From assembly GCA_918797485.1 (NCBI GenBank), contig CAKKNE010000001.1, forward strand, positions 3,844,001 through 3,908,000: a stretch of DNA of 64,000 nucleotides. Direction: 5' to 3'. A model generated the notes under the pieces. It ran no database searches and was not told the DNA's origin. It worked only from the letters and a program-made list of their open reading frames with translations. The translations under genes were made by a program, and so were the position numbers. Of the stretch, positions 35,775 through 37,016 are shown piece after piece. Within the stretch, counting starts at the first letter, position 1. Every line of letters starts with the position of its first letter. The DNA is from Pelagomonas calceolata. Lineage: Eukaryota.

Positions 35775-37016
35775 TCAGGACTTCGGCAGCCCCCAGAGCT
35801 TGAGCGTCTTGTCGCCCGACCCAGACACGACGCGCCGCCCGTCCGGGGAGATAGCAACGCTCGTGACCTACGACGAAGACAGATCATGACAAAGGTACAG
35901 CGGACGCTGCGCAACGCACATATTGCGAGTGCCCTTTCAGCGTCGCCACGCACTCGCCGGTCGCCACGTCCCACACCTTGAGCGTCTCGTCGCGCGACCC
36001 AGACACGACGCGCCGCCCGTCCGGTGAGATAGCAACGCTCTTGACCTACGACGAAGACAGATCATCACGAAAGTACAGTGGACGCCGCAACGCACGATAT
36101 TCGAGTGCCCTTTCAGCGTCGCTAGGCACTCGCCGGTCGCCACGTCCCAGACCTTGAGCGTGTTGTCGCCCGACGCAGACACGACGCGCCGCCCGTCCGG
36201 AAACACGGCAACGCTCAGGACCTACGACGAAGACCCATCATCACGAAAGTACAGTGGACGCCGCGCAACGCACTTGACGACGAGTGCCCTGAGACGAGTG
36301 CCCTTCCAGCGTCGCCACGCACTCGCCGGTCGCCACGTCCCACACCTTGAGCGTGCTGTCGTCCGACCCAGACACGACGCGCTGCCCGTCCGGAAACACG
36401 GCAACGCCAAAGACCTACAACGAAGACACATCATCACAAAAAGTACAGCGGACGCCGAAACGCACGTAACTCGAGTGCCCTTCCAGCGTCGCCACGCACT
36501 CGCCGGTCGCCACGTCCCACACCTTGAGCGTCTTGTCGCTTGACGCAGACACGACGCGCCGCCCGTCCGGAAACACGGCAACGCTCAGGACCTACGACGA
36601 AGACCCATCATCACGAAAGTACAGTGGACGCCGCAACGCACACTCGACGAGTGCCCTTCCAGCGTCGCCACGCACTCGCCGGTCTCGATGTTCCACACCT
36701 TGAGCGTGTTGTCGCTCGACCCAGAAACAATGCGCCGCCCGTCCGGAAACATGGCAACGCCCCACACCTACGACGAAGCCAGATCATCACAAAAGTACAG
36801 CGGACGCCGCAACGCACGGGCCGCGAGTGCCCTTCCAGCGTCGCCACGCACTCGCCGGTCGCCACGTCCCAGACCTTGAGCGTCTCGTCGTCCGACGCAG
36901 AAACAATGCGCCGCCCGTCCGGAAACACCGCAACGCCATTGACCTACGACGAAGCCAGATCATCACAAGAGTACAGTGGACGCGGCAACGCACGTCGCCC
37001 GAGTGCCCTTTCAGCG
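35775..37016 (-). repeat. Tandem array of ~176-bp exon+intron units encoding WD40 blades
   Basis: Seven near-identical units: a 126-nt exon plus a 50-52-nt intron GTGCGTT...CTTCGTYGTAG. Confidence 0.95.

Follow-up and report, generated by a model that had tools for sequence, protein, structure and literature searches.

What does a gene do whose 3' part consists of one short exon and one tiny intron, repeated in almost identical form? Such a gene lies on the minus strand of a 64,000-nt stretch of Pelagomonas calceolata contig CAKKNE010000001.1 (the window), a gene-dense region of 63% GC, and its repeats are those of a WD40 propeller. The genome of P. calceolata has been described as homozygous and intron-poor in the main texts of two reports (10.1101/2021.10.25.465678, 10.1101/2024.10.30.620910), which makes seven introns within 1.2 kb unusual. 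Observations on the gene's structure, its expression and splicing, the folds and motifs of its domains, the multigene family to which it belongs, the position and speed of its variation, and the homogenisation of scaffold and introns lead to a reading that we hold to be fairly probable: the gene would encode an intracellular sensor of non-self, whose propeller binds, whose helicase switches, and whose synthetase executes.

The whole gene occupies positions 35775..39885 and comprises eight exons (all parts of the gene given below are on the same minus strand). The spliced product is 1251 residues long, and RNA depth on the gene's strand is found in 29-30 of 30 bins. The protein starts with MGAGSS, a possible N-myristoylation signal to judge from these residues. 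An in-frame ATG lies upstream of the gene start at 39885; relatives begin at the equivalent MG, which is the protein start in 23 of 49 family proteins. Exon 1 measures 2892 nt and the internal exons 126 nt (five) or 141 nt (one), so that all introns are phase 0, and the frame remains open until the stop at 35775. The end of exon 1 (36994..37035) encodes strand d and a GH-S-x-x motif, and would close the propeller with the last exon, following the standard WD40 closure (PMC3419727). The seven introns, all GT..AG, are intron 1 (36944..36993, 50 nt), intron 2 (36768..36817, 50 nt), whose sequence is, with one other, the commonest in the family, intron 3 (36592..36641, 50 nt), intron 4 (36415..36465, 51 nt), intron 5 (36222..36273, 52 nt), intron 6 (36046..36095, 50 nt), and intron 7 (35868..35919, 52 nt). 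Between them lie the blade exons 36818..36943, 36642..36767, 36466..36591, 36096..36221, and 35920..36045, of 126 nt each, and 36274..36414, of 141 nt, in which a short local duplication makes the d-a loop longer. Each internal exon is one structural blade, from strand a through strand d (a-b-c-d) and then the GH loop; the first has the WD-40 repeat protein 2ymu as its best PDB match. The last exon (35775..35867) encodes strands a-b-c and the stop (WGLPKS*) and, with the end of exon 1, would complete a seven-blade ring. This mapping follows the published sequence rule (PMC3419727) and the PDB sequence match, fold models and their predicted local distance difference test (pLDDT) scores covering the other domains.

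Introns are more alike within the array than internal exons, with mean pairwise identities of 0.91 and 0.86, and Tandem Repeats Finder describes the array by a period of 176, 6.9 copies, and a score of 1577. Intron 3 opens a stretch of 93 nt that is repeated exactly at intron 5 and its following exon, on sequence grounds by recent duplication or conversion. No further copy of the intron was found elsewhere in the 64-kb window, and the secondary structure of the introns is nothing special (z of -0.4 to 0.35 against mononucleotide shuffles). The original prediction, made from the letters of the array, had given the seven phase-0 introns of 50-52 nt, the 126-nt exons with one of 141 nt, and the junction residues, all of which are confirmed by splicing the minus strand. 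It had put introns at about the conservation of exons, and they prove even more conserved. Its description of the cassettes stands, the 2.9-kb first exon having been missed.

The array is real. Splicing is evident from RNA reads, directly so for intron 6. The same cassette occurs in 30 ocean-metagenome loci. The RNA data consist of four raw runs from one sample, mapped at 95% likeness, and reads map to the gene's strand in all four. Among the joints listed (15 of 99), exact splicing of intron 6 is seen in 42, 35, 35, and 23 reads of the four runs, with a shorter side of up to 75 letters. Within intron 1 the depth drops to 7/2/3/2, nearby exon positions having 47-91. Mapped reads at least 99% alike number 826 of 4104, 725 of 2688, 642 of 2266, and 615 of 1994 (20-31%). 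Many other reads are exon-exon joins with residues absent from the window locus, three of which were decoded as SYQ-VWG, SDY-VWG, and SSY-VHS; transcription, with splicing at an identical position, therefore extends to several members of the family. Since P. calceolata is reported to be homozygous, these mixed reads are more likely paralogues than alleles, and non-adjacent exon joints are best read as paralogue reads as well.

Exon 1 encodes the executing and switching parts of the proposed sensor. The N-terminal domain (39088..39588, residues about 100-266) has a predicted model with a pLDDT of 87 and, by fold matches, a RelA/SpoT-type small alarmone synthetase fold. VIA-align gives a Z of 11.4 with B. 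subtilis SAS2 6fgk (root-mean-square deviation 4.1, 148 aligned) and of 11.1 with Tas1 6ox6 (25% identity; Foldseek 5e-7), and its ten best rows are all RelA/SpoT-family structures. Residues K140, R144, K148, D162, R165, G209-Y210, and E225, which we take to be the catalytic and nucleotide-binding motif residues of alarmone synthetases, are retained in 14-15 of 15 rows. RelP/RelQ and Tas1 are the best matches of the domain, which may catalyse pyrophosphate transfer. It resembles RelP/RelQ, Tas1, and CapRel in the fold over about 147 residues (Z 10-11.4) and in the conserved charged motifs, and differs from them in sequence (17-25% identity) and in being part of a eukaryotic protein, together with a helicase and a repeat domain.

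The central domain (37417..38607, residues about 427-823) is a two-lobed, Schlafen-like helicase of superfamily 1 (SF1), identified by Pfam, Foldseek, and the motifs GDxSQ, RST, DGLE, and RAMTRA; the helicase motifs are conserved among relatives. Pfam matches are AAA_30 (1.4e-8), SLFN-g3_helicase (7e-6, above its cut-off), AAA_19 (1.5e-5), and AAA_12 (1.2e-4). The top Foldseek match is SLFN11 (7.6e-9), followed by IGHMBP2 and RecD, with SLFN14 also among the top matches. VIA-align scores many SF1 and superfamily 2 helicases alike and does not separate the two, so that the assignment rests on GDxSQ and RAMTRA, presumably SF1 motifs III and VI. Compared with Schlafen proteins (SLFN11, SLFN14), which with SF1 helicases give the best matches, identity is about 16%; Pfam finds no Schlafen nuclease domain (AlbA-2), the N-terminal domain having the RelA/SpoT fold instead. 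No Pfam match to NACHT, NB-ARC, or a ROC-COR core is found in the window protein, nSTAND_NTPase5 reaching 19.8 bits, below its cut-off of 34. The helicase forms a family of its own, with 770 cluster representatives at E <=0.001 and varied flanking domains: in 36 long representatives, of 150 listed, these are RCC1 (6), kinase (4), leucine-rich repeat (LRR, 3), F-box (2), and ankyrin (1). Behind the helicase, an acidic Ala-rich linker (37036..37416), predicted to be disordered (pLDDT <50 for residues 824-964), ends in a family motif (...LRFMPF) common to relatives.

The helicase might itself be the sensor, recognising foreign nucleic acid as do Schlafen 11 and RIG-I-like proteins, with the variable propeller as a decoy or guard that evolves so as to evade viral inhibitors or trap them. 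The Foldseek matches to SLFN11, IGHMBP2, and SLFN14 agree with such a role, as do family members that possess the helicase and no WD40, and PADLOC reports weak matches to the defence helicases NERD-Hel (2e-5), GajB (7e-5), and HamB (1e-4). These PADLOC scores are, however, generic helicase matches, and the WD40 cassette is also found behind non-helicase N-termini in three metagenome loci (L004, L005, L016), which points to the propeller as a portable specificity module. We regard a nucleic acid-sensing helicase as the seat of specificity as improbable.

In a set of 69 standard exons, five of them from the window, with L025 left out as a duplicate of L020, the combination of residues at codons 2, 18, 20, 41, and 42 is distinct in all 69. 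Entropy is highest at codon 42 (3.92 bits), followed by codons 2 (3.65), 18 (3.35), 41 (3.07), and 20 (2.36). The three most variable, 42, 2, and 18, are the top-face hotspots R1-2, R1, and D-1 of the published rule (PMC3419727), in line with the original prediction that variation sits at the top face. Furthermore, 42/2 and 18/20 correspond to the two codon pairs reported to be under selection in the fungal HNWD genes (PMC1805685). W, Y, and F make up 24% of residues at codons 2, 18, and 42. The scaffold is under purifying selection (ratio of amino-acid to silent rates, omega, 0.14-0.21, p<1e-16; MG94 fit). By comparison with silent sites of the scaffold, the variable codons evolve 4 to 50 times as fast. 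For the b-c turn pair, codons 18 and 20, omega is 4.6-4.8 in the 69 exons (p 0.015-0.025) with a normal silent rate. A tree-free comparison gives a proportion of amino-acid differences (pN) of 0.61 at the five codons, against a silent proportion (pS) of 0.16 in the scaffold and an intron distance of 0.075, the last being biased low by the selection of loci (0.081 for the window's own introns).

At codons 41, 42, and 2, the fit gives silent rates 3.6 to 10 times as high as in the scaffold (p <=2e-4). This is what neutral repeat turnover or hypermutation beside the intron would produce, the variation then having no selected function. Codons 18 and 20, however, lie far from the intron and combine a normal silent rate with a high omega, and codons 1 and 40 and the intron ends do not vary, though they adjoin the variable codons. 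When silent rates were simulated as equal, with recombination frequent and amino-acid change very fast, two of seven replicates gave a spurious likelihood-ratio test (LRT) value of at least 15, one of them above the real value of 18; at a lower rate, none of 14 replicates reached 15. Recombination with very fast change can thus mimic a raised silent rate, local hypermutation is not needed, and variation free of selection is highly improbable. Adenine mutagenesis of the type known from diversity-generating retroelements is ruled out: all bases vary, and the third-base C of codon 18 is kept in 77% of exons.

The cassette belongs to a large family. An exact search with a 23-mer of the intron retrieved the 30 ocean-metagenome loci mentioned above. 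All 53 intron matches in them follow the GH-x-x-x codons of a WD40 unit and none is at an unrelated site, which rules out, within these data, an origin of the intron as an introner element. Parsing located 128 acceptor sites and delimited 96 exons completely, 71 of which measure 126 nt; of the 91 introns obtained, 90 are GT-AG and one is GC-AG, with lengths of 49-59 nt, the parser accepting only 44-66 nt (the window's seven measure 50-52 nt); as it sought in-frame donors and halted at stop codons, frame preservation is partly by construction. Eight arrays are complete from linker to stop, of which five have seven blades and the others six, five, and four, where short-read collapse is possible. 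The intron pattern has no match in viral contigs; the protein pattern has 134 matches in viral contigs and 554 in prokaryotic genomes, none confirmed, the latter being weak evidence of absence. Searching databases with the repeat is swamped by long bacterial and fungal proteins and recovered no spliced family member, the top-scoring matches including bacterial TIR/AAA-WD40 and fungal NACHT-WD40 proteins.

Among named proteins, the nearest relatives come from Pelagomonas calceolata (74% and 68%, across a part of the query) and from Aureococcus anophagefferens (45-65%). The synthetase motif is present in 23 of 69 helicase relatives, others having helical or tetratricopeptide repeat (TPR)-bearing N-termini. 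The WD40 repeat of the window gene recurs in nine of the 69, all of them from Aureococcus. In 14, the gene prediction runs into this first intron and ends there, so that the propeller is missed. Two Aureococcus gene models continue VWRGV after GH-x-x-x, which suggests, at the protein level, the same intron position there. In P0024-P0027, P0029, and P0040, a helical N-terminal domain replaces the synthetase; it presumably resembles HeLo or MLKL-type four-helix domains, with neither Pfam nor PADLOC support for an identity. The N-termini that precede the cassette in L004, L005, and L016, where no helicase is present, are a short MG-starting peptide, a different RelA/SpoT-like domain (by eye, no Pfam match), and a coiled coil. 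A second class of blades has a variable-length b-c loop (S-C-D-G...P-G-V-L-K) in place of S-x-D-x-T, with up to 38 extra residues; it is observed in L007, L009, L014, L016, L017, L019, L021, L024, L029, L030, and loose read ends, and recalls a hypervariable loop.

Units of different loci are as alike as those of one array. Unit distance is 0.087 within and 0.094 between arrays (p 0.12, 43 units), and the nearest neighbour comes from the same locus in two of the 43. In five loci, silent divergence of the helicase from the window is 0.15, 0.31, 0.41, 0.46, and 0.52; in the same loci, the scaffold differs by 0.10-0.19 at silent sites and the introns by 0.06-0.14, the values within the window being 0.14 and 0.08. 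Locus L014 is syntenic with the window: the ending of the last exon is the same, the 3' end and neighbouring gene are 89-96% alike (3' flank 94-96%), more distant intergenic DNA is 54-77% alike, and the blades are different, in support of the original prediction. Linkage (r-squared) is 0.22 within 5 nt and about 0.03 beyond (permutation p 0.002), and all four gametes occur in 79% of 325 site pairs; recurrent mutation may add to both. Codon pairs 41/42, 42/2, and 18/20 show no association, and 2/3 are associated. These data agree with one pool shared by the whole family, in which short tracts keep the units alike and selection renews five codons.

The original prediction had instead proposed that exons act as interchangeable cassettes, through unequal crossover, conversion, or exon skipping. 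In a whole-exon system of this kind, intact blades would be exchanged where crossovers fall in the identical introns, or left out at splicing, perhaps even in one clonal culture. Each exon is indeed exactly one blade between phase-0 introns; the two sides of an intron are unlinked (codon 42 against codon 2, p 0.08), with 87 distinct junctions among 88; the 93-nt exact repeat spans an intron and part of the next exon; arrays of four, five, and six blades exist; and the ROCO genes of brown algae are reported to behave in this way (PMC3341825, PMC11378527). Sites inside one exon are, however, likewise unlinked beyond about 5 nt, its variable codons being nearly independent, and L012, L020, L022, and L024 contain repeats without introns whose variable residues are those of the spliced blades. 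Seven blades in five of eight complete arrays argue against productive exon skipping, and the non-adjacent RNA joints, as said, probably stem from paralogues. Exchange of units across loci is supported, and the movement of exons as intact cassettes is not; a whole-exon cassette system is improbable. The data do not need intact-exon swapping, some of which may occur.

The repeats without introns belong to genes with two propellers, one of which is largely free of introns, at L022 564-1700 (+), L020 392-1400 (+), L024 216-789 (-), and L012 343-616 (-). The flank downstream is common to L020 and L022; in L020 the second propeller has diverged, whereas in L022 it is family-like, as if it had been overwritten there by conversion, perhaps from spliced copies.

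Taken as a non-self sensor on the plan of an NLR (NOD-like receptor), the protein may work as follows. The top face of the seven-blade propeller is the predicted binding site of a foreign protein, which may come from a virus or another parasite. The helicase-type ATPase would act as a switch activated by the propeller. The alarmone-synthetase-fold domain would stop the infected cell or kill it; candidate products are (p)ppApp, (p)ppGpp, and modified tRNA. The protein may also be anchored to a membrane. Diversity would arise from point mutations at the five top-face codons, favoured by selection and spread by short gene-conversion or crossover tracts among near-identical exon-plus-intron units at many loci. 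The intron, copied along with the 176-nt unit, would add homology inside the most variable patch, and would not be required.

Several points weigh against this reading. Ligand, switching, and synthetase product are all inferred, and with no STAND domain (signal transduction ATPases with numerous domains), the helicase's role as a switch is by analogy. Pfam RelA_SpoT does not match the window protein, its best match among relatives having an E of 0.24 (P0009). Omega at codons 18 and 20, high in the 69 exons, drops to 2.5-3.2 in a second set of 33 junction-centred units and is not significant there (p 0.19, 0.37). Codons 41, 42, and 2 have an omega of just 1.4-2.1 (p 0.03-0.32), and tree-based omega estimates are unreliable under this much recombination. 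Selection of loci by an exact intron 23-mer inflates intron conservation, and these loci are short-read metagenome contigs, in which repeats can be misassembled.

The propeller could also read a polymorphic self protein, as HET-E and HET-D read HET-C, and serve allorecognition or mate recognition with no parasite involved. The closest evolutionary parallel, HNWD, is reported to work in this way (PMC1805685, PMC12222747). In the algal protein no evident secretion signal is seen by eye, no predictor having been run, and 69 distinct combinations among 69 exons seem a large diversity for few self alleles. Unicells, moreover, are not known for routine somatic fusion, and recognition of self seems quite improbable.

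The parallels of the proposed non-self sensor are worth setting out. Podospora HNWD genes (het-e and het-d, HET-NACHT-WD40) and other fungal NLRs also carry near-identical WD40 repeats under concerted evolution within and between loci (PMC1805685, PMC4986451, PMC12222747). HNWD likewise has its selected codon pairs in the d-a loop and the b-c turn (PMC1805685). Their N-terminal domains are interchangeable as here, RelA/SpoT among them: a RELA_SPOT-NACHT-WD40 architecture is listed for fungal NLRs (PMC4986451), and RelA/SpoT domains have been described as toxins (PMC3482391). In contrast, the fungal proteins have a central NACHT or NB-ARC, and the algal family a two-lobed SF1-type helicase. In the alga, each blade has an exon of its own, homogenised along with a 50-nt intron, of which the available parts of the HNWD papers make no mention; the usual size is one seven-blade propeller, and the host is a unicellular alga.

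Candidate immune receptors of stramenopiles are also encoded by the ROCO-LRR and NB-ARC-TPR genes of the brown algae Ectocarpus and Saccharina; as in the present family, each repeat is an exon, selection is diversifying, and exchange takes place between genes (PMC3341825, PMC11378527). They have open LRR or TPR arrays, whereas the propeller is closed, and their phase-2 introns can hold spare or inverted exons, whereas those described here are tiny, near-identical, phase 0, and hold none. The algal family is also without their ROC-COR or NB-ARC core, and exchange in it is mostly finer than the exon.

No paper on this algal family was found in the literature outside subscription journals, and the main texts of the two P. 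calceolata reports contain the term "WD40" zero times. Each ingredient has precedent; their combination and the helicase core appear undescribed. The family joins an HNWD-type hypervariable propeller with the exon-per-repeat layout of brown algae, on a helicase instead of a STAND ATPase core, and suggests alarmone-type chemistry as a eukaryotic defence output. Recognition of viruses and parasites in abundant picoalgae is largely open, and the family supplies named candidate receptors for it. Its specificity code is small and readable, five codons by seven blades, and can be tracked in ocean metagenomes and in culture. A wider proposal, which we put forward with considerable doubt, is that of a pelagophyte class of immune receptors without STAND, combining an alarmone-synthetase toxin, a Schlafen-like helicase switch, and a WD40 sensor. 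Its blades would be drawn from one genome-wide recombining pool and rewritten, within clonal lineages or at splicing, at a speed sufficient to give a single-celled alga an anticipatory receptor repertoire.

Other features of the window were noted in passing. Next to the array, a small plus-strand gene contains what looks like an intron-sized stretch, about 80 nt long (35380-35443), absent in the syntenic L014. The upstream neighbour (40109-41827) is an ordinary TAF5-like WD40 gene (TFIID_NTD2), the DNA of which is unrelated to the array. The window also holds at least four copies of a short repeat that L004 and L027 have as well (24530-24575, 43625-43701, 48657-48727, and 51682-51731). An open reading frame (ORF) with no Pfam match holds a two-copy, 165-nt tandem repeat (16137-16441), and another (60627-62882) encodes an mRNA capping enzyme with a guanylyltransferase, a match to a fungal/viral-type triphosphatase (E 4e-5), and a WW domain.
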